64,000 nucleotides of DNA from an uncultured Clostridium sp. (lineage in GTDB: Bacteria > Bacillota > Clostridia > TANB77 > CAG-508). Position numbers and translations under genes: made by a program. The stretch is from NCBI GenBank assembly GCA_900555615.1, contig USMB01000002.1, positions 33,230-97,229 of the forward strand, in the 5' to 3' direction. Positions 2,080 through 18,230 of this stretch are shown here, piece by piece. Under the pieces are notes generated by a model that was not told the DNA's origin, ran no database searches, and worked only from the letters and a program-made list of their open reading frames with translations. Each line of letters begins with the position of its first letter. Positions within the stretch are counted from its first letter, which is position 1.

Positions 2080-2099
2080 TCTTAAGTAAAATATTGCTG

Positions 2100-2151
2100 A
2101 TTTGGGGTCGGTCCTTTTTTGAACATGTGAAAAAAAGGACCGACCCCAAAT
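2100..2151. repeat. Palindromic intergenic element, copy A (type 1); likely bidirectional rho-independent terminator
   Basis: Near-perfect inverted repeat atttggggtcggtcctttttt / aaaaaaaggaccgaccccaaat around a 9-nt loop. It lies between the convergent rlmD and the 2207-2740 gene, with a T-run on the + strand and an A-run (T-run on the - strand). Confidence 0.7.
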
Positions 2152-2206
2152 GCGCAAATGAACAATGAGAAAGCTGATAAGTTTACTAAACTTATCAGCT
2201 TTCTTA

Positions 2207-2740
2207 TTAGTAGTACTTTTCCTTGAAATGAGGCAATCCCCTTTCATCAATGAAAGCAGTAACAGATACATGTTCACATGTATAAGAAACTTCATGGACT
2301 TTAGTGGCCATCAAAATATAGCGAAGATAGTTCTTTGCAGCTAAAGGTAACTCTTCAGCAGTATCTTCATCAAAATCCCAACCACCAACAGAAACGATTG
2401 AGTAAACTGGTTTGCAACTTACTAAATCATTTTCTGGAACAATCCGAGTCATGTTTTGCTTATACTTATAAGTAGTGCAAGCAATAACATTGCCATAAAT
2501 TAATCCAGCTCTACCAATAACATCAAGGTTTTGGATAATCAGTTTCTTTACATTATTCTTCTTGATTAGAGAATTTAATAGAACTAAATCCATCCAACCA
2601 AAGTGTGATGCACTTCCATCATAGCCTTCATAGAATACTTGACCTAAAGAAGTCTCGATAGGAGTTTCAGTAGGAAAGTGATCGTCATCAACCCAAAAAG
2701 CAGGAAGAATCAAGGTTTCATTATTAACAGTGGTAATCAT
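2207..2740 (-). CDS. Hypothetical conserved protein (177 aa)
   Basis: Clean ORF with a strong RBS (AGGAGG 8 nt before the ATG at 2740). No family recognised from sequence. Confidence 0.5.
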   Translation of the reverse strand: MITTVNNETLILPAFWVDDDHFPTETPIETSLGQVFYEGYDGSASHFGWMDLVLLNSLIKKNNVKKLIIQNLDVIGRAGLIYGNVIACTTYKYKQNMTRIVPENDLVSCKPVYSIVSVGGWDFDEDTAEELPLAAKNYLRYILMATKVHEVSYTCEHVSVTAFIDERGLPHFKEKYY

Positions 2741-2835
2741 AAAGTTTTTCCTCCTCGTTTGTATAAATTATTATTACAACGAAAAAACAAAAATTCTACG
2801 AAATATTATACCACTATTTATAAAATAATGCAATA

Positions 2836-2880
2836 GGAAAACCAGCTGCTTCTAGTTTTAGAGCCAGCTGGTCTATTTTA
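2836..2880 (-). terminator. Rho-independent terminator downstream of serS
   Basis: 8-bp stem accagctg/cagctggt (2841-2848 / 2865-2872), followed on the minus strand by a TTTTCC run. Confidence 0.55.
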
Positions 2881-2892
2881 TAGCTACTATTT

Positions 2893-4179
2893 TTATTTAA
2901 CAGGAACTAATTTTTCTTTTCCACCCATGTAAGGTTGTAAAACTTTAGGAATTGTAACACTTCCATCTTCATTATAGTTACATTCAAGAAGAGCGATTAA
3001 AGCTCTAGGAGTAGCTAAAACAGTATTGTTTAAAGTATGTACAAATTTATTTCCTGTTTTTGATTTATATCTTATGCTTAATCTTCTAGCTTGTGCATCA
3101 CCTAATGTTGAGCAAGAGCAAACTTCGAAATATTTTTGTTGACGAGGGCTCCAAGCCTCAATGTCGCAAGATTTTACTTTCAAGTCAGCCATATCACCAC
3201 TGCAACAATCTAATTGTCTAACAGGAATGTCTAAACTTCTAAATAATTCAACAGATATTTTCCACATTTTATTGTACCATTCCATAGAATCTTCTGGTTT
3301 GCAAAGAACAATCATTTCTTGTTTTTCAAATTGATGAACTCTATATAAACCTCTTTCTTCAAGACCATGTGAACCAATTTCTTTTCTGAAACATGGAGAA
3401 TAAGAAGTTAGAGTAATAGGTAATTGAGCTTCATCAACGATTTGATCCTTGAATCTACCAATCATGCTATGTTCAGAAGTTCCAATTAAATATAAATCTT
3501 CACCTTCAATTTTATACATCATAGCTTCCATTTCATCAAAAGACATAACACCATCAACAACATTACTTCTAATCATGAAAGGTGGGATGCAGTAAGTGAA
3601 ACCATGTTCAATCATGAAATCACGAGCATATGCAAGCATAGCTTCATGTAATCTAGCAATATCTCCAACAAGATAATAGAAACCAACACCGCTTGTACGT
3701 CCAGCGCTTTCTTTGTCAAGACCATTAAATCTATCAATAATATCAGCATGATGAGGAATTTCGTAACTTGGAACAATAGGGTCTCCAAATCTTTGAACTT
3801 CAACATTTTCACTATCATCTTTTCCAATAGGAACAGAAGCATCAATTATATTAGGAATTTTCATCATTCTTACTTTGATTTCTTCAGAATATTTTTCTTC
3901 CAATTCTTCGTTTTCAGCAAGAGCATCATTTATTTTTTGAACCTCTTGTCTGATGCTTTCAGCTTCATCTTTTTTACCAGCTTTCATTAATTGACCAACT
4001 TGTTCGCTTAATTTTTTTCTATCAGCTCTAAGGTTGTCGCCATTCAATTTAGCTTCTCTATTTTTTTTGTCCAAATCTAAAACTTCATCAACCAAAACCA
4101 ATTTTTGATCTTGGAATTTTTTCTTAATATTTTCTTTTACTAAATCTGGATTTTCTCTAATTAACTTTATATCAATCAT
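2893..4179 (-). CDS. serS: Seryl-tRNA synthetase
   Basis: 428 aa. N-terminal coiled-coil arm. Class II aaRS core motifs (FRKE..S, GLYRVHQFEK.E, and the GDMADL/VHTLNNT region). Full-length colinear with bacterial SerS. Confidence 0.9.
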   Translation of the reverse strand: MIDIKLIRENPDLVKENIKKKFQDQKLVLVDEVLDLDKKNREAKLNGDNLRADRKKLSEQVGQLMKAGKKDEAESIRQEVQKINDALAENEELEEKYSEEIKVRMMKIPNIIDASVPIGKDDSENVEVQRFGDPIVPSYEIPHHADIIDRFNGLDKESAGRTSGVGFYYLVGDIARLHEAMLAYARDFMIEHGFTYCIPPFMIRSNVVDGVMSFDEMEAMMYKIEGEDLYLIGTSEHSMIGRFKDQIVDEAQLPITLTSYSPCFRKEIGSHGLEERGLYRVHQFEKQEMIVLCKPEDSMEWYNKMWKISVELFRSLDIPVRQLDCCSGDMADLKVKSCDIEAWSPRQQKYFEVCSCSTLGDAQARRLSIRYKSKTGNKFVHTLNNTVLATPRALIALLECNYNEDGSVTIPKVLQPYMGGKEKLVPVK

Positions 4180-4294
4180 TTTAATCGCCCTTTCTGTATT
4201 TTGATGTAGTAATTATACAATAAAATTCAAGAAATATCAATAAAAATTACATAATTTGTGAATAATAGAAGTAATTAGTTTGTGAGGTGGAAAT

Positions 4295-5182
4295 ATGAAA
4301 TTGTTATGGGAAATTGTTCAATTTTTATTTTATACAGGATTGATAGTAGTTATTTCTAAATATTTACTTTTTAGAACATTGCGAAGTCTAGCAGAAAATT
4401 TGAAGTTAAAACCAAAGACAGTAGGGGATATAGCAGGTGTTGCAACCTCTGTACCAGAACTCTTAACCATTAGTGCATCAAGCCTAAGTGGGTTGAACAC
4501 AGCTGGTATTTATAACATAATAAGTTCAAATGTAATTAATTTAATTCAATATTTTGCTGCGATTTTATTAAATAAAAATCAAAAAATTTTTAGAAATAAA
4601 GCCATTTTTATAGATGTAATTCTTGTTGTTATCACAATTATTTTGCCAATACTTATTGTCTGGAGCGGAGTAGAAGTAGACTTGAAAATGTTGCCAATAC
4701 TGCTTTTGTTGTATATCGGATTTGTGCGAATAGACAGAAATGTGCATAAATTGTATTTGAAAGATGCAGAGGAGACGAATGATGTTGAGGATGTGAAATA
4801 TGTGGGTGATGTGAAAAAGACGAAACATGAGAATAAAGAATGGCAAAAGGGAAGTCAAGTAGATAAAAAAACTGTAGCTAAAAATATTTGTATATTAATA
4901 ATTACAGCAGTATTGCTATTTTTCATTGGAGAATTGTTAGGAAATACCCTAGAAAATTTGTGTAGAAAATTTAATGTTCCAGAACTAATGATAGGAATCA
5001 TATTGGGGTTTGCTACAAGTATACCAGAATTGATAACATTCTTTGAAGCGCAAAAACATCATTCAAAAGAACAAAACAATATTCATGGAGTTGTTGAGGC
5101 TACAAATAATTTGCTTACATCAAATATGATGAATTTATTTATTATTCAATCTATTGGAATATTAATAGCAAGTTTTGCATAA
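4295..5182 (+). CDS. Ca2+/cation antiporter (CaCA family, YrbG-like) membrane protein
   Basis: 295 aa and multi-TM. Two alpha-repeat motifs typical of Na+/Ca2+ exchangers (GDIAGVATSVPEL and GFATSIPELIT). RBS GAGGTGG present. Confidence 0.65.
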   Translation: MKLLWEIVQFLFYTGLIVVISKYLLFRTLRSLAENLKLKPKTVGDIAGVATSVPELLTISASSLSGLNTAGIYNIISSNVINLIQYFAAILLNKNQKIFRNKAIFIDVILVVITIILPILIVWSGVEVDLKMLPILLLLYIGFVRIDRNVHKLYLKDAEETNDVEDVKYVGDVKKTKHENKEWQKGSQVDKKTVAKNICILIITAVLLFFIGELLGNTLENLCRKFNVPELMIGIILGFATSIPELITFFEAQKHHSKEQNNIHGVVEATNNLLTSNMMNLFIIQSIGILIASFA

Positions 5183-5183
5183 A

Positions 5184-5216
5184 ATGTGAAAAAAAGGACC
5201 GACCCCAAATTCGCAA
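5184..5216. repeat. Half copy (right arm only) of the type 1 palindromic element, copy B
   Basis: atgtgaaaaaaaggaccgaccccaaattcgcaaagg matches 32 of 33 nt of the right arm and flank of copy A (2124-2158). There is no left arm upstream. Confidence 0.5.
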
Positions 5217-5228
5217 AGGAGGAAGAAA

Positions 5229-5516
5229 ATGCAAGAAGAATATTTAATCGAAAAGATGATAAAAGGGAAGAATGACAAGGAAAAAGAGTTAGAATTAATG
5301 AGAAGCATAATTGAGACAAAAGAACTATTAAAAGTTGCAAGATGCAATTTTGAATACGCAGAAGATGAGCTGATTGATTATTATACTTATCAAATAAAAG
5401 CACATCAATCTAAGTTGGATTATCTTATTAAAATTGCGAAAAGAAAAGGAATTGTGCTTAGTAGAATTAATGAACTAATGGCGAGATTATATAGAAATAA
5501 TAATAATGTGGTATAG
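5229..5516 (+). CDS. yaaL: YaaL-like (DUF2508) small protein
   Basis: 95 aa. Strong RBS AAAGGAGG. DUF2508-like ID..Y..Q.KA.Q.K.DYLIK motif. The position immediately upstream of bofA mirrors the B. subtilis yaaL-bofA order. Confidence 0.45.
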   Translation: MQEEYLIEKMIKGKNDKEKELELMRSIIETKELLKVARCNFEYAEDELIDYYTYQIKAHQSKLDYLIKIAKRKGIVLSRINELMARLYRNNNNVV

Positions 5517-5529
5517 AAAAGATTAAAGA

Positions 5530-5557
5530 ATATTTGTCCGATGTTCAACATACAAAT
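5530..5557 (+). promoter_or_regulatory. Putative sigma-E-type promoter upstream of bofA
   Basis: ATATT(5530-5534), 14-nt spacer, CATACAAA(5549-5556). This matches the Bacillus sigma-E consensus (ATATT -14- CATACA-T). B. subtilis bofA is sigma-E dependent. Confidence 0.4.
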
Positions 5558-5639
5558 TATAATAAATGCTTAGATAGTCTAAAGGATAGGTTAAGAGATC
5601 GTTTAAGTTTATTAATTTGTTGATGTTGAGGTGAATGCA

Positions 5640-5909
5640 ATGGATGTTAATATGAGTATTCTTGTAATAATTTCTTGTATATGCATATTGTTTGTAATTG
5701 GAAGGATTTTTATTGTTCCTATTAAATTGATAGCAAAATTAATTTTAAATTCGATATTAGGTGGAGTTCTTATATGGATAATTAATTTGATAGGCGGAAT
5801 ATGGAGTTTTCATATAGGATTGAATTTATTGACTTCAATTTTAGTTGGAATATTAGGTGTTCCAGGTGCTTTACTTCTTATATTCATAAGGTTGATGGTT
5901 GGAGTTTAA
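5640..5909 (+). CDS. bofA: Pro-sigma-K processing inhibitor BofA
   Basis: Two TM helices and a GILGVPGALL motif matching the BofA GILGIPG signature. ~85-90 aa. The start is ambiguous between ATGs at 5631, 5640 and 5652; GAGGTGA at 5622-5628 favours 5640. Confidence 0.7.
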   Translation: MDVNMSILVIISCICILFVIGRIFIVPIKLIAKLILNSILGGVLIWIINLIGGIWSFHIGLNLLTSILVGILGVPGALLLIFIRLMVGV

Positions 5910-5995
5910 ACAAGTAGTTAAAATTCTAATAATTCACATATTTATTTTATATAGAAAAATCACCCATTAGGTAAGTCTTATTACACAATAAAAAA

Positions 5996-6039
5996 GCAAG
6001 GGGTAACAACTTAATGTTACCTCTTGTTATACCCCTTGC
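5996..6039. terminator. Long hairpin, likely terminator for the minus-strand 6078-6338 gene (weakly bidirectional)
   Basis: gcaagggg...ccccttgc outer stem with nested taacaa/ttgtta. On the minus strand it is followed by TTTTTTATT. On the plus strand it is preceded by an A-run. A second small hairpin gcagcggttaggctgc+TTTT at 6048-6075 may terminate bofA. Confidence 0.55.
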
Positions 6040-6077
6040 TTGCGAGGATGGTGCAGCGGTTAGGCTGCTTTTAATCA

Positions 6078-6338
6078 TTACCAGTCAACCCTGTTAAAAT
6101 ACAGGATTTCCTCTAATTTCTGACAAGCGTCATCGAAAATGACTATATCCGCCTTGCCAGGAAACTGTTTCAGGAAAGTTCTTTCAAACTCCCCACGATA
6201 CTTCAGATTAGGACCGTAAAGTCTAACCATAGGTATAACTTTTTCTTCCCCTGTTTCCAAGTTACGGATAACAAAGTCAGAAGAGTTCGTTTTCAACCGG
6301 ACGGAAATTGCCTTTTTGGCGCTAATCATAGTAATCAT
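6078..6338 (-). CDS. Hypothetical small protein (86 aa)
   Basis: Good RBS (GGAGGT 7 nt before the ATG). Followed by a terminator. No family recognised with confidence. Confidence 0.5.
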   Translation of the reverse strand: MITMISAKKAISVRLKTNSSDFVIRNLETGEEKVIPMVRLYGPNLKYRGEFERTFLKQFPGKADIVIFDDACQKLEEILYFNRVDW

Positions 6339-6403
6339 ATAGACTACCTCCTCTAAAATTAAGATACTTCTATTATACTACAAAATTCGACAAAATGCAA
6401 ATA

Positions 6404-8932
6404 TTAAATAATTTTGTTGAAATTTCCATTTGTGAATTCTTGACCTTCTAATTTTTTGCCAGTTTTTACTGTGTCAATTATATTATTTATTTCAGATATT
6501 GATTCATCTAAAATGTCGATTCTGACTGAATTTACACAGATTTCATCATGTTCGATAGATGTGATTTTACTATTGTAGATTGTGGTAACAGTGTCAACAT
6601 TGTCAGGGATAACTCTAAACAAAAATCCAAGTCTATCTTTTAAATAGAATTTATTTGTTGAATTACATAGGTGAGGACAAGCTGAATAGCATTTATTTGA
6701 CTTTCCAAGCAAACAGTAATTAGAATTCATTAATGGGGTTCTTCCATAAACAATCAATTCTGTTGAGCAAGATGTTCTGGCAAATGTTTGTAGATCTGAT
6801 TTGTTTAACTCTGGAGAAAGTGTCACGGTGTTTTTAGAAGAGTCAGCTAATTCTGCAATTGTCAAATTGTTGAAAACATTTAATGTATAGTTATAAATAA
6901 ATTCATATTTGTCTTTATAATTTTTTAATAGTTCGAGATTGCCTATATTTGAAAGCACAAATCCTTTGATTTTATACTGTTCAAGTATGGTTGACAAATT
7001 GTTTGCAATTATTTTGTGATAATTATTTCTCATAATTGTTGGCATATAAATATAAGTTTCAAAATTTTCAGTTAATTCAGCCATAACATTCTTGAAATCT
7101 TTAAGTACGAAATATTTTAGTGGAATATAGACTTTGTCGATTCCGTGCAATTGAGTGTAATCAAAATTTGGGCTTAAGATGTTAAGCAATACACTGATTT
7201 TTTTATTTGTGTTAGAATTTTTTGCAGGATTTATGTCCAATCTAGGTAATTTCAAATTTCTTCTAAAAGATTGCACAAGCAAAGCTTCGTATTGAGCTAA
7301 AGCATGACGTCTAAGCTCGTTGATTGCACTGATTCCTTGAATATATAGACCATCATCCAAATCAATTTCAATATTTTCAAAATGAAATGGAGTATTGTTA
7401 GTCTTAGAAAGTTGAGCAGCTAGACGCTCTTGAGTTATAGGTGCATTTATAGCCTCAACAGGAATTATGTCAGAAGTTATTTTTACTTCATGTGAATTAA
7501 AATCTGAAACATAAAGTTCAACAGGCTGATTTCGCTTAACTATCATCTTACAATTTAAATTTATTTTACGATTTTCTTTATTTAAGGTTTCAAGGGCAGA
7601 AGTGGTAAGCAATTTATCAGCAATTTTGTAGATTTTATCACCAACAGAAATGTTGCCTTTCATTCTACCAATCTTGATTTTGTCGCCACATGTGGCTTGT
7701 AGCACATTTTTATCTTGAATCATCAACTCAGAAATTGTATATGTTGAAGTTTCATGCTTTTTATTTTCTACACTAATTTTGTCGCCAACTCTTACAGTTA
7801 CATCTGAATCTCTTGAAACAGTAAGAGAAATGTGACCTTTGTTATTGTTAAAATTAGAAATAGTGCCTAAATAAATTCCCATATTATTAGATTTATTTTT
7901 ATATATTAAATTTTTATTTGGAGTACTTTCTAGGTGACCACTAGAAAATCCACCACGGTTGAATACTTGTAAAAGTTCAGTTTTGTCCTGAGGATTTATT
8001 TTGTACTCAGACCTATTAGCTTGAGCTAAGTCTAGGTATTTTCTATAAATTCTTGTTACAGTTGCAACATATTCAGGCGTTTTCATTCTGCCTTCAATTT
8101 TTAGGCAAGTTACGCCAGCATCAACTAATTCAGGTAAATAATCTAATCCACATAAATCACGAGGACTTAAAAGATATCCTTTATCAAGTGAAGTTAAACT
8201 TTCAGAAGATGCTGAGCTTAGATTAGCAGAAGTTAAATTTGCTAAATGCGTTGTAAGTGATATGCCTTGTGAGGCTGAATCTGTTGAGGTTGTTGAGCCT
8301 TGTTGATTTGAAGTTGTTGAACTGCAAGAAAGTAATTCATATGGAAGACGACAAGGTTGAGCACATTTGCCACGATTACCAGAACGTCCTCCAATCATGC
8401 TTGAAAATAAGCATTGGCCAGAATATGAAATACATAAAGCACCATGTGCGAAAACTTCAATTTCTACATTAGAATTCTTACAAATATGTTCAATTTCTTG
8501 CAAAGAAAGTTCACGAGAAAGAACAACACGAGAAAAGCCAAGCTTTTGTAATTCAAGAACTCCTTCAAGATTATGTACAGACATCTGTGTGCTTGCATGA
8601 ACAGCAAGTCCAGGAAAATTCTTAATTAAATAACGTGCAAGACCCAAATCTTGAACAATTATTGCATCAATTCCGTATTCATAAGCTTTTTTTGCTAATT
8701 CAATAGCATCATTAATCTCATCATTTTTTATTAAAGTATTTAAAGTAAGATTTGTTTTTACACCACGAAGTTTGGCGTAAGATATTGCTTTTTCTAAAGC
8801 AGAATCATCAAAATTAGAAGCAAAAGCTCTTGCACTAAAAGAACTTGCTCCAAAATATACAGCATCAGCTCCATTTTGAACTGCTGCTTTTAAACATTCG
8901 AAATCACCAACTGGTGAAAGTAACTCTATCAT
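6404..8932 (-). CDS. U32 family peptidase (collagenase-like) with C-terminal DUF3656-like extension
   Basis: The true start is MIELLSPVGDF, with AGGAG 7 nt upstream (ATG at 8932). The ORF-track start at 9010 lacks an RBS. Carries U32 signatures (E.L..P.G, ..AGADAVY.G, CAQPCR). A ~45-aa S/T-rich low-complexity insert follows the CAQPCR motif. Confidence 0.8.
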   Translation of the reverse strand: MIELLSPVGDFECLKAAVQNGADAVYFGASSFSARAFASNFDDSALEKAISYAKLRGVKTNLTLNTLIKNDEINDAIELAKKAYEYGIDAIIVQDLGLARYLIKNFPGLAVHASTQMSVHNLEGVLELQKLGFSRVVLSRELSLQEIEHICKNSNVEIEVFAHGALCISYSGQCLFSSMIGGRSGNRGKCAQPCRLPYELLSCSSTTSNQQGSTTSTDSASQGISLTTHLANLTSANLSSASSESLTSLDKGYLLSPRDLCGLDYLPELVDAGVTCLKIEGRMKTPEYVATVTRIYRKYLDLAQANRSEYKINPQDKTELLQVFNRGGFSSGHLESTPNKNLIYKNKSNNMGIYLGTISNFNNNKGHISLTVSRDSDVTVRVGDKISVENKKHETSTYTISELMIQDKNVLQATCGDKIKIGRMKGNISVGDKIYKIADKLLTTSALETLNKENRKINLNCKMIVKRNQPVELYVSDFNSHEVKITSDIIPVEAINAPITQERLAAQLSKTNNTPFHFENIEIDLDDGLYIQGISAINELRRHALAQYEALLVQSFRRNLKLPRLDINPAKNSNTNKKISVLLNILSPNFDYTQLHGIDKVYIPLKYFVLKDFKNVMAELTENFETYIYMPTIMRNNYHKIIANNLSTILEQYKIKGFVLSNIGNLELLKNYKDKYEFIYNYTLNVFNNLTIAELADSSKNTVTLSPELNKSDLQTFARTSCSTELIVYGRTPLMNSNYCLLGKSNKCYSACPHLCNSTNKFYLKDRLGFLFRVIPDNVDTVTTIYNSKITSIEHDEICVNSVRIDILDESISEINNIIDTVKTGKKLEGQEFTNGNFNKII

Positions 8933-8967
8933 AAATTTGCTCCTTTTATTAAAAAAATCTCCGGTAC

Positions 8968-9005
8968 AAAATTGACAAGGTGTCAAAAAACACCGACCCC
9001 AAATT
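8968..9005. repeat. Partial palindromic element, copy C (type 2: ttgacaNNNtgtcaa core plus right arm)
   Basis: aaaattgacaaggtgtcaaaaaacaccgaccccaaatt. About 90% identical to copy E (15682-15720). Lies in the 5' leader of the U32 peptidase gene. Confidence 0.5.
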
Positions 9006-9058
9006 AGCATAATTATATCATAAAAATTTCAAAAAATATATAAAAAATAGGAATATAA

Positions 9059-9750: not shown

Positions 9751-11484
9751 ATGATGAAAAAAACGAAGCAAATATTGTCGATTTTGCTAATTTTATATAT
9801 AATAATAAATTTGATTTTTGGAAATATTTCATTTGCAGTAAATCAAACAACAACAAATGATTTTAATTCAATTGATTCAAACACATATCCACAGATAAAA
9901 GAAATGATACAAGAACTAAAAAATCAATATCCAAATTGGAATTTTGAAATTTTGTATACAGACATAAATTGGACAGATGCAATAGCAAATGAATATGTTG
10001 GACACGGAAGTTCTCCAAGAAATTTAGTTCCAGCAAATAATATTAATTATGACAGAGATTGGATATGCAATGTTTGTGGAGAGCAAACATATGATAGTGG
10101 AAAATGGTATTGTGCATCAGAGGCAGCAATTGCCTATATGATGGATCCAAGAAATTCATTAAATTACAGTGATATTTTTCAATTTATGCAATTATCATAT
10201 ACAGATTGTAATTATGAAAGAATATATGCAATGGTTGAAGGAACATTTTTACAAAATAGTGTAAATGTAATAATTGATTCAGCACAGAAATATGATGTTA
10301 ATGCATATTATATTGTCGCAAGATTATTGCAAGAACAAGGAAAAAATGGTTCTACATTAACTGCAGGAAATGGATACAATGGACAATATGAAGGATATTA
10401 TAATGCGTTTAATATAGGAGCAAATGGAAACGGAAAAGAAAATGTTATTTTAAATGGATTAGCAACAGCCCAAAGTTATGAATGGACATCTTTAGATAGT
10501 TCAATAATTGGTGGAACTGAAATAATTGCCAAAAGATATATTGCAAGAGGACAAAACACATTATATTTTCAGAAATTTGATGTAGAAAATTCAGATGGAA
10601 ATTTGTATTGGCACCAATATATGCAAAACATTTTAGCAGCTCAAAAAGAAGGACAAACATTAAGAAATACATTTGAAGATATTGATGCAATAAATGCATC
10701 ATATACGTTTATTATTCCAGTATATAAAAACATGCCATTATCAGCTTCTCAAAGACCATCATCAACATCTTCACCATCAAATCCAGTTAATCCAGATACT
10801 CCAACAACAAGTGATATGGTAAGAGTTAATGTTACAGGTTCACTATATTTAAGAGAGGAACCAAGTAAAAATTCAGAAAAAATAGATAAAGTATATAAAG
10901 ATGAGATAGTAACAAGATTAGTTAAAGCAACAGAGAAAGTCGATGGTACATATTGGGATTATGTAATGAAAGCAAATGGATCAAGAGGCTATGCTGCTAG
11001 AGAAACATATGATACTGAGCCTAATTACAAATTATACTTAGTACCAGTAGAGGATGAAAATCCATCAACTCCAGAGGTTCCAGATGATGAAGCAGTTATA
11101 AGAAATGATAAAGTTAAAATTAATACAGTAACTAATAATGTAACAACTGTTCCAGGTGCAACAGTTCAAGATTTTTCAAATCTTATTGGTAAAGATGTTA
11201 CTGCTAAAAATTCAAATGGTGATGTTTTAAACTCTGATGCTAAACTTTCAACAGGCTGTGTAATAAATGATGAATATACTGTTGCAGTCCTTGGTGATGT
11301 TAATGGAGATGGGGAAACAACAGCATTGGATGCGGCAATTATATTAAGGTATACTGTAAATCAATATAATATGACAGAAGTTCAAAAAAATGCTGGAGAT
11401 TTAGCAAATTCAAATAATCCAACAGCATTAGATGCAGCTAAAATATTAAGATATACTGTTGGACAGTATAATATAAACATATAG
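9751..11484 (+). CDS. Secreted cell-wall hydrolase: GH73 glucosaminidase domain + SH3b + C-terminal dockerin
   Basis: Signal peptide. GH73-like LLQEQGKNGSTL...YYNAFNIGA segment. SH3b-like VRVNVTGSLYLREEP...YWDYV segment. C-terminal duplicated dockerin repeats GDVNGDGETTALDAAIILRYTV and GDLANSNNPTALDAAKILRYTV. ATG at 9751 after AAGAGG. Confidence 0.7.
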   Translation: MMKKTKQILSILLILYIIINLIFGNISFAVNQTTTNDFNSIDSNTYPQIKEMIQELKNQYPNWNFEILYTDINWTDAIANEYVGHGSSPRNLVPANNINYDRDWICNVCGEQTYDSGKWYCASEAAIAYMMDPRNSLNYSDIFQFMQLSYTDCNYERIYAMVEGTFLQNSVNVIIDSAQKYDVNAYYIVARLLQEQGKNGSTLTAGNGYNGQYEGYYNAFNIGANGNGKENVILNGLATAQSYEWTSLDSSIIGGTEIIAKRYIARGQNTLYFQKFDVENSDGNLYWHQYMQNILAAQKEGQTLRNTFEDIDAINASYTFIIPVYKNMPLSASQRPSSTSSPSNPVNPDTPTTSDMVRVNVTGSLYLREEPSKNSEKIDKVYKDEIVTRLVKATEKVDGTYWDYVMKANGSRGYAARETYDTEPNYKLYLVPVEDENPSTPEVPDDEAVIRNDKVKINTVTNNVTTVPGATVQDFSNLIGKDVTAKNSNGDVLNSDAKLSTGCVINDEYTVAVLGDVNGDGETTALDAAIILRYTVNQYNMTEVQKNAGDLANSNNPTALDAAKILRYTVGQYNINI

Positions 11485-11494
11485 GAGATTGAAT

Positions 11495-13192
11495 ATGAAA
11501 AATAAAGTAAAAATAAGTTTATTTGTATTTTTTATAATATTATTTGGATATTATATAAAATCAAATGCAGCAATATTGGCACAATCAAAACAAGTAAATT
11601 CAGGTGAACAATTTTCTGTAAATGTAACATCAGATGTTTCTCTTGCATCATATAGTGTTAAAGCACAAAGTTATGATGGATTGGAATTTGTTGGAAGTAG
11701 CGGAGGAATAGGAAGTGGAACGACAACAATTTCTAGTGCATTAGCTCAAGGCGGAACAACTAATTTGGCTACATTTACATTTAAAGCTCCAACTGTCGAA
11801 AAGGATACACAATATACAATTAAATTTTCAGCTACAGGGATGGGGGACGAAACTTTAACACAAATACCTAATTCAGATAAAAGTGTTACAATAACAGTTA
11901 AAGCTCCAGAAAACAATAATTCAAATTCTAATAATGATGGTAATAGTGGAAATAATGGTAGCAGTGAGCCAGCACAAAAATCAACAGAAGCAGTATTAAG
12001 CAATTTAAAAATACGACCAAATGACTTTACAGGGTTTAAGCCAAATAAGAAAGAATATTCTGTAGAAGTTCCAAACAGTACATCAGAAGTAGAAGTTTAT
12101 GCTACAGCATCAAAGGGCGAAATTATATCAGGTCTTGGAAAAGTAGCATTAAAAGAAGGCAATAATACTGTAGAAGTAGTAGTAAGGGCAGAAGCTGGTA
12201 ATACAGAAACATACACATTAAAAATTAAAAGAAGAACAGCAGAAGAAGAAGCGCAAAATGCATCTGATGCAACATTAAAAAATCTAGGAATAAATCCAAA
12301 AGAATATGATTTTTCAGGATTCAAAAAAGATCAGACAGAATATAGTGTAGAAGTACCAAATGAAATAAAAACAGTCGAAGTTTATGCAGAAGCAACAGAT
12401 TCAAAAGCTCAAGTAACAGGAACAGGAGACATAGAATTAAACGAAGGTGCAAATGAAGCGAAAGTAGAAGTAATAGCACAAGATGGAACAAAGAAAACAT
12501 ATACAATAACAATAACAAGAAAAGCATCAGAAACAGCTGCTACAACAGATTCAAAATTTGGATTATCAAGCCTATCAATAAGCGGTCAAACAATAAGTCC
12601 AAATTTTAAAAATACTATTTATTCATATACTGTTGGAATAAAAGAAGATATTTCAAGTTTAGAAATAAATGCTGTTGCAACAGATAAAGAAGCAAAAATA
12701 GAAATCATGGGAAATGAAAATTTACAACAAGGTGAAAACACAATAACAGTGATAGTAAAAAATGAAAAAACAAATCAAACAGTAACATATAAAATTACAG
12801 TTAATAAAAATGTAGTTAGTGAAACAAAAGTAGAAAGAAACTTTTTTAATCCATCAACATGGGGAAAAGAGATGATTATCAAATCAATAATTGTAGCAGT
12901 TTTAATTTTATTGATTATAATTGCAGTGGTATTGAAAGTAAAAATATCTAAAGAAGCAAAATTAGAGAATGGTAATGATAATCATGATGATATTGACTTC
13001 CCAGGAGCAAATGAATTAAATAAGGCTATTGCAGAACATCAAGAATTAAGTGAAAATAATGAAAAAAATGAAGAAAGTAAAGCAAAAAAATATGTTGAAA
13101 ATGATGCAAAAACAGAAGAAAAAATGAAAAAAATTGATGCTGAAGAAAATGACGCTAATGCTAGTGGCAGAAGAAAAGGAAAGCATTTTTAA
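11495..13192 (+). CDS. Membrane-anchored cohesin-domain protein with four cadherin-like beta-sandwich repeats
   Basis: Signal peptide. ~110-aa cohesin-like module (V.SGEQFSVNV......L.SYSVKAQSYDGLEFVG). Four ~85-aa repeats of the form NLKIRPNDF.GFKP.K.EYSVEVPN...VEVYA. A TM helix and a charged tail. Starts 11 nt after the dockerin gene stop, with AGGAG 7 nt upstream. Confidence 0.65.
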   Translation: MKNKVKISLFVFFIILFGYYIKSNAAILAQSKQVNSGEQFSVNVTSDVSLASYSVKAQSYDGLEFVGSSGGIGSGTTTISSALAQGGTTNLATFTFKAPTVEKDTQYTIKFSATGMGDETLTQIPNSDKSVTITVKAPENNNSNSNNDGNSGNNGSSEPAQKSTEAVLSNLKIRPNDFTGFKPNKKEYSVEVPNSTSEVEVYATASKGEIISGLGKVALKEGNNTVEVVVRAEAGNTETYTLKIKRRTAEEEAQNASDATLKNLGINPKEYDFSGFKKDQTEYSVEVPNEIKTVEVYAEATDSKAQVTGTGDIELNEGANEAKVEVIAQDGTKKTYTITITRKASETAATTDSKFGLSSLSISGQTISPNFKNTIYSYTVGIKEDISSLEINAVATDKEAKIEIMGNENLQQGENTITVIVKNEKTNQTVTYKITVNKNVVSETKVERNFFNPSTWGKEMIIKSIIVAVLILLIIIAVVLKVKISKEAKLENGNDNHDDIDFPGANELNKAIAEHQELSENNEKNEESKAKKYVENDAKTEEKMKKIDAEENDANASGRRKGKHF

Positions 13193-13206
13193 GTTTGGCT
13201 TGGTGA

Positions 13207-13271
13207 TAATTTGGTGTCGGTGTTTTTCTTGACATTCTTGTCAAAAAAAAAACACCGACACCAAATTGACA
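13207..13271. repeat. Palindromic intergenic element, copy D (type 2, full)
   Basis: aatttggtgtcggtgtttttcttgaca ttc tgtcaaaaaaaaaacaccgacaccaaattgaca. The arms are near-perfectly complementary. Directly follows the cohesin gene stop. Its 3' end supplies the TTGACA of the tRNA promoter. Confidence 0.7.
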
Positions 13272-13294
13272 TTTTAATTAGCATATACTATAAT
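13266..13294 (+). promoter_or_regulatory. Consensus sigma-A promoter for tRNA-Thr
   Basis: TTGACA(13266-13271), 17-nt spacer, TATAAT(13289-13294). About 23 nt upstream of the mature tRNA 5' end. Confidence 0.65.
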
Positions 13295-13317
13295 GTAAAT
13301 GTTCTGTTTGAACTTAT

Positions 13318-13393
13318 GCCACTATAGCTCAGTTGGTAGAGCGACGGATTCGTAACCCGTAGGCCAGCAGTTCGATTCTGCTTGGTGGCACCA
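13318..13393 (+). tRNA. tRNA-Thr (anticodon CGU)
   Basis: 76 nt. 7-bp acceptor stem (GCCACUA/UGGUGGC), D-arm GCUC/GAGC, anticodon loop UUCGUAA, T-arm AGCAG-UUCGAUU-CUGCU, encoded CCA. Confidence 0.85.
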
Positions 13394-13602
13394 ATGATGT
13401 ATTTGTTTGAACTAGTAGAACAGATAGAGACAAAATTTTGGGCATGAAGATATTTCATTTCTTATGCAAACCACTATAGTATATAATATAAAATAAATCA
13501 ATATAAAAGAAACGAAATTTCGCAAAACTTTTGAATGAAGTTTTATGTATTTAACTTAACTTTCAGCTACTTTTGTAGTAAGATAGAAAACCAAGTGATT
13601 TT

Positions 13603-13636
13603 GGAAAGTTCAAAATAACTTTCCTTTTATTTTTTC
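13603..13636 (+). terminator. Rho-independent terminator ~200 nt downstream of the tRNA
   Basis: ggaaagtt/aactttcc 8-bp stem, 6-nt loop, then TTTTATTTTTTC. Confidence 0.55.
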
Positions 13637-13645
13637 TAGCAGTAT

Positions 13646-13685
13646 AAAAAAGCCTAGAACCATTCAAGATTCTAGACTTTTTATT
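13646..13685. terminator. Bidirectional terminator (murC 3' end)
   Basis: aaaaa-gcctagaa...ttctagac-ttttt: hairpin flanked by an A-run and a T-run. Confidence 0.5.
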
Positions 13686-13705
13686 ATTAAAACAAATATT
13701 TTAAA

Positions 13706-15085
13706 TTATTCAACAATCATAGGACCGATATTTGTAACAGTACCAGCACCTAAAGTTAAAACGATATCATTTTCTTTAACATTTTCTTTCAAATATTTTG
13801 CACAATCTTCCAAAGCAGGAATGTATTGAGCATTTTTCCCTAATTTTACAATAGCATCAGCTAAATCTTTTGAAGAGATGTTGTAAGTGTTAGTTTCTCT
13901 TGCTGCATAAATATCAGTAACGATTATGTGGTCAAAAGAAAGTAATGCATTAGCAAAATCATTTAACAAATTGAAAGTTCTACTATAAGTATGAGGTTGG
14001 AAAACAACCCAAGATTCATTATATTTCTTATTTTTTAGAGCCTTAGCAGTTGCAGAAACTTCAGTAGGGTGATGACCATAATCATCAAAAACTTTTGCAC
14101 CATTTACCATTCCTTTAAATTCAAATCTTCTATCAGCACCTTTAAAATTCTCTATAGCACTTTTTATTGTTTCTACAGAAATATCATATGCATCGCAAAG
14201 AGCTATACAAGCTAAAGCATTTAAAACATTATGTTTGCCTGGAATTGATAATTTAAAATGTCCGAAAAATTCACCATATTTATAAACATCGAATTCAGGG
14301 AATCCGTCTTCACTAAAAACTATGTTTTGGGCTAAAAAGTCAACATCATCATTTTCAATTCCATATTTTATGGCTGGAGCCTTAGAATACACAGGTAAAT
14401 CTAAGCAGTTTAAATCATCTGCATTAATTATTAAATGTCCATCTTCTGGCAATAATTTTACATATTTAATAAATGCTTTTTTAATATTTTCAAGATTTTT
14501 GTAATAATCTAAATGATCGTTATCAATATTTAAAATTATTTCTGACCTTGGACTGAATTTTAAAAAGCTTTCAACATATTCACAAGCTTCAATTATAAAG
14601 TTTTCACTATTTCCAACTCTGTAATTTCCGCCAAGTTCTTTAATAATTGCACCAACTTGAATACTTGGATCTCTCAATGCTTCAATAAAGCATAATGAAA
14701 CAAGTGAAGTGGTAGTTGTTTTTCCATGTGTTCCAGAAATTGCTATAGTATTTTTGTAACATCTAGTAAGTTCGCCAAGAAAATCTGACCTTTCAATAAC
14801 AGGAATACCAAGCTCTTTAGCGTGGACTAATTCAGGATTATCTTTGCTAATTGCAGCAGTGTATACAACACAATCAGCACCTACAACGTTTTGAGCATTG
14901 TGACCAATAAAGATTTGAATTCCTGAATTTTTTAGTATATGTAAAAGTTCAGAATCAGTGCGGTCACTGCCAGAAACTGAAAATCCCCAATTTACAAGGA
15001 TTTCAGCAATTCCACTCATACTAACCCCACCAATACCAATCATATGTATTTTTTTATATTTTTTTATATTATTAATATTTGGCAT
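13706..15085 (-). CDS. murC: UDP-N-acetylmuramate--L-alanine ligase
   Basis: Mur ligase motifs (IGIGGVSMSGIAEIL, GTHGKTTTTS, DNDHLDYY). The start is MPNIN, with AAGGAG 9 nt upstream. The ORF-track start at 15094 would overlap that RBS. Confidence 0.9.
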   Translation of the reverse strand: MPNINNIKKYKKIHMIGIGGVSMSGIAEILVNWGFSVSGSDRTDSELLHILKNSGIQIFIGHNAQNVVGADCVVYTAAISKDNPELVHAKELGIPVIERSDFLGELTRCYKNTIAISGTHGKTTTTSLVSLCFIEALRDPSIQVGAIIKELGGNYRVGNSENFIIEACEYVESFLKFSPRSEIILNIDNDHLDYYKNLENIKKAFIKYVKLLPEDGHLIINADDLNCLDLPVYSKAPAIKYGIENDDVDFLAQNIVFSEDGFPEFDVYKYGEFFGHFKLSIPGKHNVLNALACIALCDAYDISVETIKSAIENFKGADRRFEFKGMVNGAKVFDDYGHHPTEVSATAKALKNKKYNESWVVFQPHTYSRTFNLLNDFANALLSFDHIIVTDIYAARETNTYNISSKDLADAIVKLGKNAQYIPALEDCAKYLKENVKENDIVLTLGAGTVTNIGPMIVE

Positions 15086-15334
15086 TATAAACACTCCTTA
15101 TTTTTGTTTTATTATTATATACTTATATAATGTAAAATTCAAGATTTTTGCTACAAAATCTTTTACAAAATATATTTAAATTATTTATTTGTAAAAAAAT
15201 GACGAAAAAAATAAAAATATAATAAAAAATTTGTAAAAAAAAGAGGGGAAAAAATTTTTGTTGGAGAATAATATAATAGTACATAAGATACAAATACATA
15301 TGTACAAAATTTAAAAACAGTGGAGGTGCACACA

Positions 15335-15607
15335 ATGCAAATAACAGACGTACGTTTAAGAAAAGTAAATTCAGAGAACAGAATGAAAGCTGTTGCTTCT
15401 GTAACATTCGATAATGAATTTGTTATCCATGATATCAAAGTTATCGAAAGTCAAAATGGATTATTCATTGCTATGCCAAGCAGAAAAACTCCAAACGGAG
15501 AATTCAAAGACATAGCTCATCCAATCAATGCTGAAACAAGAGAGAAGATTCAAAAAGCTATCTTAGAAGCTTATGAAGCTCCTGAAACAGAAGAATCAGC
15601 AGAATAA
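15335..15607 (+). CDS. spoVG: Septation protein SpoVG
   Basis: [12 protein letters not shown]...[22 protein letters not shown] is highly similar to SpoVG. GGAGGTG RBS 6 nt before the ATG at 15335. The track's GTG at 15320 overlaps that RBS. Confidence 0.9.
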
Positions 15608-15621
15608 TAAATTGATTTCAA

Positions 15622-15653
15622 ACCGATGCTAATTTATGGCATCGGATTTTTTT
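15622..15653 (+). terminator. Rho-independent terminator of spoVG
   Basis: ccgatgc/gcatcgg stem, then TTTTTTT. Confidence 0.7.
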
Positions 15654-15660
15654 GCGTTTT

Positions 15661-15725
15661 TGTCAAGAAAAAATCTGTCCCAAAATTGACAGGGTGTCAA
15701 GAAAAACACCGACACCAAATTGACA
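15661..15725. repeat. Palindromic element, copy E (type 2, partial; ttgacaGGGtgtcaa core plus right arm)
   Basis: ...caaaattgacagggtgtcaagaaaaacaccgacaccaaattgaca. Near-identical to copy C. Shares its right arm with copy D. Confidence 0.55.
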
Positions 15726-15732
15726 AAAAGAT

Positions 15733-15763
15733 GTCATAACCCGCTAATAGCCTGCATATACAT
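15733..15763 (+). promoter_or_regulatory. Possible sigma-E-like promoter for the spoVID-like gene
   Basis: GTCATAAC(15733-15740), 14-nt spacer, CATATACAT(15755-15763). Loosely resembles the sigma-E consensus TCATATT-14-CATACA-T. Inference only. Confidence 0.3.
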
Positions 15764-15795
15764 TAATAAAAAAAGAAGTAGAGGAGGTTATTTTC

Positions 15796-17376
15796 ATGGA
15801 AATAAATATGACAAAAGAGACTTTAAAAGTTAAAAAAGTTATCTGTGAAAAAAAAGAAATGATAAGCATACAAGGTGACATGATAGTGCCAGATTCAAAG
15901 CCTGATATATTAAGTACTGTAAACACGAGTGGAACCATATGCATATATAAAAAAGAGATGATGGATGGAAAAATAAGAATTGATGGAAATGTTCTTACAT
16001 ATATAATGTATCTTGCTGATACTAGCTCGAGAGAGAATATGAATGATAATATTAGGGGATTGAATACAGGATTGGATTTCTCTGAGACGATAAGTGTTCC
16101 AGATTTGCAGGAGGGAATGAACGCTGATTTGACGCCTACTATAAAGCTGATTGAATGTAAGATTTTGAATGGAAGAAAGATTTCTATAAAAGCTTCTGTT
16201 GAGGTGTCAATTAAGGTGTATTCAACAGATCCGATTGATATTATAACAGACATGAATGACAGCAATATTCAAGTGCTTAGCAAATCTATGAGGGTAAATT
16301 CTTTACTAGGTGATGGGATGACAAAGTCATCTATTAAAGAAAATATTTCGATTCCTACTACAGATAATCTTGCAGAGATTTTGGGCGAGCAAGTTTGCTT
16401 GGTTGATAAAGATATCAAAATTAGCTATAATAAAATTTTGGCTAAATCAGAGGTTGAAGTTAAACTAATTTATTTAACTGAGGATGGCAGAATTTGCACT
16501 ACTAGAAATCGTTTACCACTTGTAGGTTTTATCGATATGCCAAACATAAAGGAAGATAATATTTGCGAGCTTTCTTATTTAATTAAGAACATCATCATTA
16601 AGCCTAATTCAGTGGAGGAGCACACTGTATATATTGAGATGGAAGTTGAAATTTCTTGCATCGTGTATGAAGAAAAAGAAATTAAGAGCATTCAAGATAT
16701 GTACTGTCCTGGCGAAAAGATGGATTTTGACCAGACGATGGTTAATACGATTTCTAACAAACAATGCAGAAAAAGTACGTGTAGCATCAGAGAAAAGGTC
16801 AATGTGCCAGAGTTGCAAAATGTAGAACAGAGTAAGATTATCGATGTTGAGGTAAATCCAACTATCGAAAAACAAAATAAGATGAATGGCAAAATCAAAT
16901 TTGAGGGAGAGGTTGAACTTAACTTTATTTTTATGGAGGCAGCTACGAGCACAATCAATTCTAAAAAGGCAGTGGTTCCTTTTGAACAGACAGTTGATGG
17001 AATTGAAGGCCTAGATGATTGCAAAGTTGATACAAATATAGACATAGATTCACAAAGTTTTGAAAATCAAGCTGGAACAGTCAGTGTAAATATTGATTTG
17101 AGCTTCGAGGTTAGTGCTTATAGAAATTCAACAATTCCCGTAATTTCAAACATTTCTATGGAAGAAGATGACGAAATGGAAGATTACAGCGTTGTTATTT
17201 ATGTGGTTAAAGCAGGGGACACTTTGTGGAAAATTGCGAGAAGGTTCGGAAGCACGGTTGACGATATTGCTAGAGTGAATGGGATGGAAAATCCAAATAA
17301 ATTAAATGCCGGAGAAAAAATCTATATTCCTAAATTTGTACTTAAAAGAGCGAAAGAGCCAATTGTTCTGGCATAA
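15796..17376 (+). CDS. SpoVID/SipL-like sporulation protein (repeated DUF3794-type region plus C-terminal LysM)
   Basis: 526 aa. C-terminal LysM (YVVKAGDTLWKIARRFGSTVDDIARVNG...GEKIYIP). The N-terminal two thirds resembles the DUF3794 region of SpoVID/SipL. RBS GAGGAGG. Confidence 0.6.
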   Translation: MEINMTKETLKVKKVICEKKEMISIQGDMIVPDSKPDILSTVNTSGTICIYKKEMMDGKIRIDGNVLTYIMYLADTSSRENMNDNIRGLNTGLDFSETISVPDLQEGMNADLTPTIKLIECKILNGRKISIKASVEVSIKVYSTDPIDIITDMNDSNIQVLSKSMRVNSLLGDGMTKSSIKENISIPTTDNLAEILGEQVCLVDKDIKISYNKILAKSEVEVKLIYLTEDGRICTTRNRLPLVGFIDMPNIKEDNICELSYLIKNIIIKPNSVEEHTVYIEMEVEISCIVYEEKEIKSIQDMYCPGEKMDFDQTMVNTISNKQCRKSTCSIREKVNVPELQNVEQSKIIDVEVNPTIEKQNKMNGKIKFEGEVELNFIFMEAATSTINSKKAVVPFEQTVDGIEGLDDCKVDTNIDIDSQSFENQAGTVSVNIDLSFEVSAYRNSTIPVISNISMEEDDEMEDYSVVIYVVKAGDTLWKIARRFGSTVDDIARVNGMENPNKLNAGEKIYIPKFVLKRAKEPIVLA

Positions 17377-17392
17377 AATTTGAGTGGTGCGA

Positions 17393-18154
17393 ATGGATAA
17401 AATTGATAAGATTTATTCAAGAAGGAGATTTGTGTTAGGAAATTTTGGTGGTGAACGTGGCGGAAAATGCAGAAAGAGCAAAATTCCTTCTAATTATAAT
17501 AAGTATAAAATCTATAAATTTAGAAAAAGTGTTGTTTTGATTGCTGTGATAATAATTGCTTTTGTGGCATTAAGGACGGCATTTAGAAGGATAGATCCGA
17601 TGTTTGAAGCTTTGTGTGAGGAAAGGCTAAAATACAAGGCTACTATTATTACCAATCAGCAGTCGACAGTTGTTATGGAAAAGTATAAGTACGAAGAACT
17701 GTATACTGTTGAAAGAGATGAAACTGGAAATGTGACAGTGATAAGGGCAAATGTCCTTCCTATTAATAATATGATTTCTGATTTGACAGAAAGCATTCAA
17801 AATGAATTTGAAAAGATGGAGAAGAGTAAAATTTATATTCCTTTTGGGAGTTTGACCGGCTCATATTGGCTTGCAGAGTATGGACCTAGTATTCCAATAA
17901 GTTTTTCGATGTTGGGCACTCTTGATACTGAAATTAAGAGTGAGTTTGTGGCTCAAGGTATTAATCAGACTTTACATAGAGTTTGGGTGAATTTTAGTTG
18001 CGATATGAAGGTTGCTACTCCTTTGAAGATTTATAAAGAGAATGTGGTTAATCAGGTGGTTCTTGCTGAACATGTTATTGTTGGGAATATTCCTGATACT
18101 TATTATAATTTTGATGGTGTGGGACAGGATGAAGTTTTGAATGTGATAAAATAA
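17393..18154 (+). CDS. yunB: Sporulation protein YunB family
   Basis: N-terminal TM anchor. Conserved core IPFGSLTGS.L....GP.IPISF...G.....E....GINQTLHRVW. Starts 16 nt after the upstream gene, so probably co-transcribed. The track's GTG at 17384 is an alternative start. Confidence 0.6.
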   Translation: MDKIDKIYSRRRFVLGNFGGERGGKCRKSKIPSNYNKYKIYKFRKSVVLIAVIIIAFVALRTAFRRIDPMFEALCEERLKYKATIITNQQSTVVMEKYKYEELYTVERDETGNVTVIRANVLPINNMISDLTESIQNEFEKMEKSKIYIPFGSLTGSYWLAEYGPSIPISFSMLGTLDTEIKSEFVAQGINQTLHRVWVNFSCDMKVATPLKIYKENVVNQVVLAEHVIVGNIPDTYYNFDGVGQDEVLNVIK

Positions 18155-18230
18155 CAATTTTGTGTCAATTTTGGGTCGTTTTTTTTGACAGGGCTGTCAA
18201 AAAAAACGACCCAAAATTGACACAAAATTG
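18155..18230. repeat. Palindromic element, copy F (type 2, full; perfect 37+2+37 inverted repeat)
   Basis: caattttgtgtcaattttgggtcgttttttttgacag gg ctgtcaaaaaaaacgacccaaaattgacacaaaattg. The two arms are exact reverse complements. Begins 1 nt after the yunB stop. Confidence 0.8.

Follow-up and report, generated by a model that had tools for sequence, protein, structure and literature searches.

A REP-like extragenic repeat family and its probable RAYT-type transposase partner in uncultured gut Clostridia

Six repeat sites in the window

Short repeats recur at six sites (A to F) in the first 18 kb of a 64,000-nt stretch of DNA from an uncultured Clostridium sp. (assembly GCA_900555615.1, contig USMB01000002.1, positions 33,230 to 97,229; the whole stretch is referred to as the window), and at one of these sites other strains and related species carry a gene for a Y1/HUH tyrosine transposase. 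Here we describe the repeats and this gene, which probably form a partnership of the kind known for repetitive extragenic palindromes (REPs) and REP-associated tyrosine transposases (RAYTs). The neighboring genes in the window (spoVG, SipL, yunB, bofA, murC, and serS) and its G+C content of 30% point to a lineage of spore-forming Clostridia. A first-pass annotation had described six copies of a palindromic element, all of which are present at, or a few bases from, the positions given there; however, only A, D, and F are true palindromes. When the window was searched with the motif ACCGACMCCAAAT (at most two mismatches), 10 matches were found against 1.35 expected, a number reached in none of 100 shuffles; nine of them lie inside the six sites, and the tenth, at 56152 with two mismatches, is a chance match. 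The building block is a unit of 28-33 nt, TGTCAA-A(5-9)-[C]ACCGACMCC-AAATTGACA, which opens with TGTCAA and closes with the complementary TTGACA. Using a hidden Markov model built from the units, we detected 11 of them at the six sites and none past position 18222, arranged as inverted doublets (A, D, and F), direct tandem units (C and E), and a singlet (B).

Copy A (2094-2157) is an inverted doublet of subfamily-2 units (2095-2125 on the minus strand and 2126-2156 on the plus strand) with the core GGACCGACCCC; its arms (32+32 nt) are 88% complementary, and it lies 15 nt 3' of the stop codon of a tRNA-methyltransferase gene, ahead of a canonical terminator at 2168-2204. Copy B (5185-5215, plus strand) is a single subfamily-2 unit, 2 nt from the gene 3' end, which occupies the 46-nt intercistronic gap that extends from the stop codon at 5182 to the ribosome-binding site and start codon (ATG, 5229) of a DUF2508 gene. 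Copy C (8950-9009, plus strand), composed of a degenerate unit (8950-8977) and a full unit (8981-9009) in direct orientation, lies in the divergent region between a U32 peptidase gene on the minus strand (start at about 8932, 18 nt away) and a gene at 9168. Copy D (13204-13271) is again an inverted doublet (13204-13234 on the minus strand and 13239-13271 on the plus strand, core CACCGACACC) that lies 11 nt past the stop codon at 13192, and palindrome detection lists it with arms of 23+23 nt at 13208-13267 that are 96% complementary. Copy E (15661-15725, plus strand) consists of two direct units (15661-15691, with the variant core ATCTGTCCC, and 15695-15725) and follows the spoVG terminator (15623-15645), 70 nt 5' of the SipL gene. 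Copy F (18151-18234), an inverted doublet with a shortened core ACGACCCA (18163-18190 on the minus strand and 18195-18222 on the plus strand), has arms of 41+41 nt that are 98% complementary and overlaps the yunB stop codon.

Since each unit opens with TGTCAA and closes with TTGACA, the sequence TTGACA-NNN-TGTCAA that had been taken for the palindrome core of C and E is merely the junction of consecutive direct units. The outward-facing -35 hexamers proposed for D, E, and F could be substantiated for D, whose last six bases are the -35 box of a sigma-70-type promoter (TTGACA-17-TATAAT, 13266-13294, plus strand) in front of a tRNA-Thr(CGU) gene (13318-13393), the sole 12/12 match in positions 1-20000, but E and F form no such promoter. 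At site D of the related genome CAKOTX01, a 7-nt insertion puts a different hexamer, TTGATT, at -35, and thus the tRNA-Thr promoter there uses a separate box. The reported lack of copies in the giant-gene stretch was also borne out: there are no units in 21.4-64 kb, because this stretch is almost wholly two giant open reading frames (ORFs).

The family in related genomes and the pairing of its arms

We scanned 185,579 species genomes with the pattern AAAARSACCGACMCCAAAT; the matches listed come as match-containing blocks, and the counts of clusters, doublets, and arrays in the next two paragraphs are among these matches. Among the matches listed, many multi-hit blocks came from three metagenome-assembled genomes (MAGs) of 'uncultured Clostridia', namely CAKOTX01, CAKPGU01, and CALXHG01, and the hits in other genomes were isolated and chance-like. 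Two of these MAGs, CAKOTX01 and CAKPGU01, represent sister species of the window species, with 74-95% nucleotide identity over the collinear region, and the host of the repeat family is a lineage of uncultured, spore-forming gut Clostridia. The search for further copies in other genomes that the first-pass annotation had suggested was thus productive, as nhmmer detected at least 101 units in 34 8-kb blocks of the three MAGs.

In total, 60 clusters were examined, including the six sites of the window. Of these, 57 are situated outside ORFs of 100 aa or more, though 89% of that DNA is ORF, and the three exceptions fall at over-extended ORF starts. The extragenic confinement of the units is robust. 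Besides singlets, the clusters comprise inverted doublets (23 in one arrangement and 1 in the other) and direct arrays of 2-4 units with a period of 34-35 nt. The median distance of the doublets from the preceding stop codon is about 6 nt (21 of 23 within 19 nt), and the suggested positional bias to gene 3' ends therefore holds for them. Singlets and arrays, on the other hand, are mostly oriented as their flanking genes (15/19), and many direct arrays terminate directly at the ribosome-binding site of the downstream gene. One array has a TTGCAA-17-TATAAT promoter just upstream, and would therefore constitute the entire 5' leader. Genes and GC skew run in the same direction in the window, and an action on the lagging-strand template could equally account for the tendency of singlets to follow the direction of genes. 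We also observed that many direct arrays carry reiterations of an 11-nt sub-repeat, CCAAATTGACA, at their 3' end (loci L025, 6932-6954; L035, 1317-1323; L037, 2940-2952; and L086, about 2920-2940), and that it abuts the ribosome-binding site of the next gene directly in L025, L035, and L037.

Unit numbers vary among orthologous sites: both B (one unit in the window) and C have three direct units in CAKOTX, while E has two units in the window, three in CAKOTX, and four in CAKPGU. By exact-protein look-up, conspecific contigs were found in human-gut metagenomes, one of which (GCA_900524785.1, ULYB01048600.1) is 100% identical to the window. Copies A to D are kept in place in the conspecific strains, except for A in L002. 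In this contig, an island of about 4.4 kb (11990-16430) replaces copy A and its surroundings (about 2080-2210 in the window) and encodes a 638-aa protein, a DUF1016/YhcG-type nuclease, and a TIR-domain protein, so that it looks like a defence-island hotspot. Copy A was considered as an attachment site of this island, but this was ruled out, as the whole intergenic region is replaced and no split repeat is left. Scanning viral contigs with the unit pattern gave 10 single hits in unrelated coding sequences and no full unit. In Rfam 15 (gathering and E-value searches), only the tRNA passes, and the elements give sub-threshold matches to generic hairpins (miRNA precursors).

The hairpin potential of the doublets, which form stems of 30 bp, is strong. 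In comparison with shuffled sequences, the predicted RNA folds of A, D, and F have energies of -40.9, -38.6, and -55.2 kcal/mol (z scores of -9.2, -8.4, and -15.9, respectively), and doublets as a group range from -37 to -55 kcal/mol with z scores of -8 to -16, which agrees with the hairpin folding proposed for these three copies. Copy E folds more weakly (-21.3 kcal/mol, z -4.3, with 1 of 200 shuffles equally good), and the RNA folds of B and C are no better than those of shuffles. The junction hairpin TTGACA-GGG-TGTCAA reaches -3.9 kcal/mol (z -2.5).

The proposal that the arms remain complementary within a copy while differing between copies holds for 24 doublets, including those of related genomes. 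The cores fall into a few discrete subtypes (ACACC, CCCC, GGTACC, and the GGACCGACCCC subfamily, which lacks TGTCAA ends), and the subtype is equal in the two arms of 22/24 inverted doublets versus 6/22 direct neighbors (permutation p <5e-5). When 26 distinct doublets were aligned, 94.4% of cells pair versus 45-54% with the partner slid, and at the main polymorphic position of the stem, 15 doublets have G-C and 11 have U-A, with no unpaired case. At site D, both arms carry ACACC in the window and CCCC in the CAKOTX ortholog, a concerted change; one-sided recent single-nucleotide polymorphisms (SNPs) are also present (L005). However, the corollary that selection does not act on primary sequence could not be upheld, as there are more than 100 near-identical units in the related genomes and the differences between copies are confined to a few discrete subtypes. 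Such near-uniform primary sequence indicates amplification from few master sequences rather than free drift under structural selection alone. In addition, a TGTCAAG arm is paired with a TGTCAAA arm in 18/23 inverted doublets (including those in L014, L029, L039, L048, L053, L066, L069, L072, L073, L085, L086, L087, and L093, and copy D of the window), so that one position of the stem is a fixed mismatch (C.A or G.T); the doublets are thus regularly imperfect and have a built-in polarity. This polarity, taken as the position of the 'G' arm relative to the upstream gene, shows a weak bias.

The transposase gene at site F and its surroundings

In CAKOTX01 and CAKPGU01 (L047 and L048), the ortholog of site F is split by about 1 kb encoding a protein of about 267 aa, with an inverted doublet 5' of the gene and two direct units 3' of it. 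This protein matches Pfam Y1_Tnp with 40.7 bits (cutoff 23), and neither its HUH motif (NHVH) nor its tyrosine motif (CRYVHRNP) varies across 26 homologs. Structurally, it is matched best by 4ER8, a REP-associated transposase of E. coli, a relationship that is visible by fold comparison alone; PDB sequence and profile searches with the transposase gave no match even at an E of 1. About 690 homologs of similar length were found in metagenomes, one of which is labelled by its source as 'REP element-mobilizing transposase RayT'.

The transposase gene is single-copy and sits immediately downstream of yunB; this holds for strains of the window species, for CAKOTX and CAKPGU, and for two distant lineages (56-57% protein identity), in one of which its orientation is reversed. 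In the distant lineage that was examined in detail (L101), it is flanked by three upstream and two downstream inverted copies of a unit of that lineage's own, GCAAAACAGAACCGGTCCCAAATGTGCA, of which there are 18 copies in 20 kb, all extragenic, and which shares its layout and the ...ACCGGTCCCAAAT core with the window unit. Lineage-specific dispersed repeats on both sides of a single-copy, syntenic gene correspond to the REP/RAYT signature in the literature. Several transposase ORFs read into the downstream repeat (L048, 4432-4480; homologs P0033, P0088, P0093, and P0108), giving repeat-encoded tails that end in ...CQEKHRHQIV in the lineage of the window and in ...EPAPNA in others.

Three alleles were distinguished at site F within the window species. 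The first consists of the doublet, a TTGACT-17-TATAAT promoter, the transposase gene, and one or two units (L100, L108, and L109). The second has the same left part with an IS4-family (DDE_Tnp_1) insertion sequence (IS) just after the -10 box, and its downstream genes differ (L105 and L110-L114). In the third (the window, L106, and L107), there is no gene, and the palindrome of 41+41 nt is found instead. Because the gene adjoins yunB in the sister species and in much more distant lineages, site F of the window is, judging from these sequence comparisons, a derived allele from which the transposase gene was deleted. Two strains with the gene, L108 and L109, have 99.3% and 98.5% identity to the window left of F but 87% and 89% right of it, respectively, so that F is also a recombination junction. 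The exactness of the palindrome at F had been read as a sign of selection on a hairpin or protein site. However, the left arm mirrors the right arm including a 3-nt core deletion and the bases cacaaaa, which are unique right-flank sequence in the gene-bearing strains, and the exactness therefore most likely arose in a recent inverted-duplication or fold-back event that accompanied the gene loss, not by long-term selection.

Two thirds of the window are taken up by two giant ORFs, at 21353-45919 (8188 aa) and 46355-64000 (more than 5880 aa, with no stop before the window end). Both contain DUF285/BspA-like leucine-rich modules and many repeated Ig-like segments, and this locus differs strongly among strains; the repeats mark a recombination-prone junction that adjoins a hypervariable giant-surface-protein locus. 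Next to copy C, the U32 peptidase gene (6404-8932, minus strand) has a Ser/Thr-rich low-complexity insertion (SSTTSNQQGSTTSTDSASQ), and its longest ORF over-extends the start into copy C; a protein of 842 aa is called in related contigs. Beyond copy A, a 177-aa gene (2207-2740, minus strand) matches only part of adenylosuccinate synthetase (Pfam Adenylsucc_synt). It may be a truncated purA paralogue, a full-length purA being found about 3-4 kb outside the window start in related contigs.

Interpretation and comparison with known systems

We consider it probable, at roughly 80%, that the elements are a REP/REPIN-like extragenic repeat family partnered with a single-copy, vertically inherited RAYT-type Y1/HUH tyrosine transposase. 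By analogy with E. coli TnpA-REP and IS608 TnpA, the transposase may recognize, cut, and join the repeat as folded single-stranded DNA and may spread and maintain units and doublets in trans. Copying or repair of each doublet as a single hairpin would keep its arms complementary, and selection might leave copies where they are tolerated or useful, that is, just 3' of stop codons, between closely spaced cistrons, and in 5' leaders. Effects on expression, such as stable hairpins in 3' untranslated regions or the recruitment of the terminal TTGACA as a -35 box for tRNA-Thr, would then be by-products of placement.

Several observations weigh against this interpretation. The single unit is not palindromic, having 6-nt inverted termini (TGTCAA/TTGACA) around a 19-nt A/C-rich core and a predicted DNA fold of only -1.9 kcal/mol (z -1.1, not significant), whereas REPs are imperfect palindromes of 20-40 nt, and the tetranucleotide found at one end of classical REPs (GTAG or CGTC) is missing, as the consensus unit TGTCAAGAAAAACACCGACACCAAATTGACA and its complement contain neither GTAG/CTAC nor CGTC/GACG. 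Copy numbers and densities outside the window are lower bounds from a biased sample, the blocks having been chosen for a match. With about 10 conspecific contigs per site, we could not find clean presence or absence of a unit, and no transposition event was seen; strain differences are limited to changes in unit number, homopolymer slips, one-sided SNPs, and larger replacements. The transposase gene was not found in the 64 kb of the window. The best NCBIfam model for the protein is REP_Tyr_transpos (E 1.2e-14), with a score of 54.5 bits that is below the cutoff of 80. The transposase also has an extra conserved helical C-terminal domain of about 130 aa (residues 140-263, approximately) that ends in a helix pair resembling a helix-turn-helix (HTH); a Pfam scan of the 26 homologs gave no consistent match for this domain, only stray weak HTH hits, and Bac_DnaA_C, HTH_23, and HTH_28 matched in none of them. 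Y1 transposases of a subclass with C-terminal HTH extensions were previously reported without REP-like sequences (Quentin 2018, PMC6006769).

Alternatively, the palindromes might primarily be bidirectional terminators or RNA-stabilizing hairpins at 3' ends, kept for their RNA structure, with only an incidental link to the transposase. The E. coli REPs are reported to affect mRNA stability and attenuation, and the stability of the hairpins, the covariation of the doublet arms, and the closeness of 21/23 doublets to a stop codon (at most 19 nt) would all fit. Nevertheless, we regard this explanation as unlikely. Although four copies (A, B, D, and F) do abut gene 3' ends as initially described, their reading as bidirectional intrinsic terminators failed: the T/A runs lie within the stem and no T-tract follows it on either strand, and a terminator scan called none of A, D, and F, while calling canonical terminators adjoining A (2204-2168) and before E (15623-15645), so that the elements are not needed there for termination. 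Hairpins that lack a U-tract and stand alongside canonical terminators do not support termination as their role, and the terminator reading was rejected; these hairpins should not be labelled terminators in annotation. Moreover, B and C are located in an intercistronic gap and a divergent promoter region, and half of the sites overall are singlets or direct arrays without a significant fold, in 5' leaders or before ribosome-binding sites. Near-identical primary sequence in more than 100 copies would be unexpected for convergent terminators, and the transposase gene is flanked by the lineage's own unit in both lineages that were read (that of the window and L101). The hairpins may still have a side effect at the RNA level.

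It is even less probable that the units are operator-like or iteron-like double-stranded sites for a dimeric protein, maybe the C-terminal domain of the transposase, which would form a regulon or a nucleoid-organizing array and would not be mobile. Such sites could account for the TTGACA-N3/4-TGTCAA palindrome that recurs at every unit junction and for the regular arrays (34-35 nt period) at promoters and leaders, and the extra domain ends in an HTH-like helix pair, but this domain has no match to a Pfam DNA-binding family. In addition, most of the more than 100 copies follow stop codons, the nearby genes have no common function, and the doublet arms co-vary outside the hexamer palindrome, which protein half-sites do not require. 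The idea that the elements are miniature inverted-repeat transposable elements (MITEs) of a DDE-type IS, moved by a transposase such as that of the IS4-family (DDE_Tnp_1) element found at the F locus in several strains, is very improbable despite the inverted ends of the doublets, as no target-site duplication was found at 18 doublets (whose flanks often continue the palindrome with partial units, TTGG...CCAA), the doublets of about 65 nt are made of a 31-nt unit that is also found alone and in direct arrays, unlike MITEs bounded by terminal inverted repeats (TIRs), the IS is inserted beside the doublet, 3' of the -10 box of the RAYT gene, and is not bounded by units, and the partner conserved across lineages is the Y1 gene, not the IS.

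A REP/REPIN-RAYT partnership in these bacteria would be of interest in several respects. Almost all work on such systems concerns Proteobacteria, and their host range is extended by a clear example from uncultured Clostridia of the human gut. Here, the unit is diverged, the transposase is enlarged, and its gene is present, absent, or disrupted depending on the strain. This variation offers a population-genomic handle on the dependence of the repeats on the enzyme, since repeat number and diversity can be compared, in metagenomes already available, between gene-bearing strains and those that lack it. If the partnership is real, a gene that is kept beside yunB over deep divergence and yet is present, deleted, or IS-disrupted within a species would represent a natural experiment on transposase loss, and the leader-forming direct arrays that end at ribosome-binding sites and the repeat-derived -35 box would point to host co-option, not passive tolerance; the C-terminal domain of the transposase would belong to a class earlier reported as not associated with REPs. 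The suggestion that no REPIN-RAYT-type partnership had been documented before in Gram-positive gut anaerobes, and that this one has an architecture of its own (the doublet or junction as the structural entity, an enlarged transposase, and host co-option of arrays and of a -35 box), is tentative, and we find it rather doubtful.

Among other known repeats, Correia/NEMIS elements of Neisseria and BOX/RUP elements of Streptococcus are likewise intergenic RNA-hairpin repeats able to supply promoter hexamers, as the TTGACA of copy D does. However, they are either MITEs bounded by TIRs or modular elements, whose transposases are of the DDE type or unknown, and no sequence or architectural relationship to them was found. 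The present system also differs from IS200/IS605 elements and PATEs in that its gene is single-copy and syntenic over deep divergence, not multiplied, and in that its repeats consist of 31-nt units and do not correspond to IS ends, which have left-end and right-end hairpins.

The closest reference is the REPIN-RAYT system of Pseudomonas and Enterobacteria (Nunvar 2010; Bertels & Rainey 2011, PMC3116915; Ton-Hoang 2012; structure 4ER8). Common to both are many-copy extragenic repeats that occur as singlets, inverted doublets, and clusters, mostly downstream of genes, doublets that form long hairpins with symmetric arms, and a single-copy, vertically inherited Y1/HUH gene flanked by repeats in inverted orientation (REPtron-like), whose product has the HUH motif, the catalytic Tyr, and the RAYT fold, with 4ER8 as its best structural match. 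RAYTs are known to be single-copy and vertically inherited, and Group 1 RAYTs have been reported in Clostridia (Bertels 2017, PMC5581495). Apart from the properties of the unit, the differences are that clusters here are direct arrays with a period of 34-35 nt instead of alternating BIME-like arrays, that the transposase has the additional domain of about 130 aa and scores below the NCBIfam equivalog cutoff, and that the host is a low-GC Gram-positive anaerobe in which we observed no mobility.

RAYT-like genes flanked by non-GTAG inverted repeats, which form dimers or clusters and in some cases contain the motif GGGGWSAS, have been described as 'TIRtrons' or 'TIRYTs' (Di Nocera 2013, PMC3733652). 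In our system, too, the inverted repeats on either side of a RAYT-like gene bear no relation to GTAG REPs, and the repeats form moderately abundant families that occur as dimers and clusters. Within the complement of the unit, TTTGGGGTCGGTG, the segment GGGGTCGG agrees with GGGGWSAS at 7/8 positions, an inexact match (G for A at position 7), and the subtypes GGTGTCGG and GGTACCGG fit less well. Longer proteins with helical or HTH-type C-terminal extensions are a feature shared with both the TIRtrons and TnpA-Y1 subclass 2.1 (Quentin 2018), but the C-terminal domain found here has no detectable similarity to Bac_DnaA_C, HTH_23, or HTH_28, and the abundant REPIN-like hairpin family contrasts with the lack of reported REP-like repeats in that subclass. 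Taken together, the name REP-like fits the elements best, because a self-palindromic unit and a GTAG tag, both of which define classical REPs, are missing; the elements behave as REP/REPIN sequences do and fit the looser TIRtron class.

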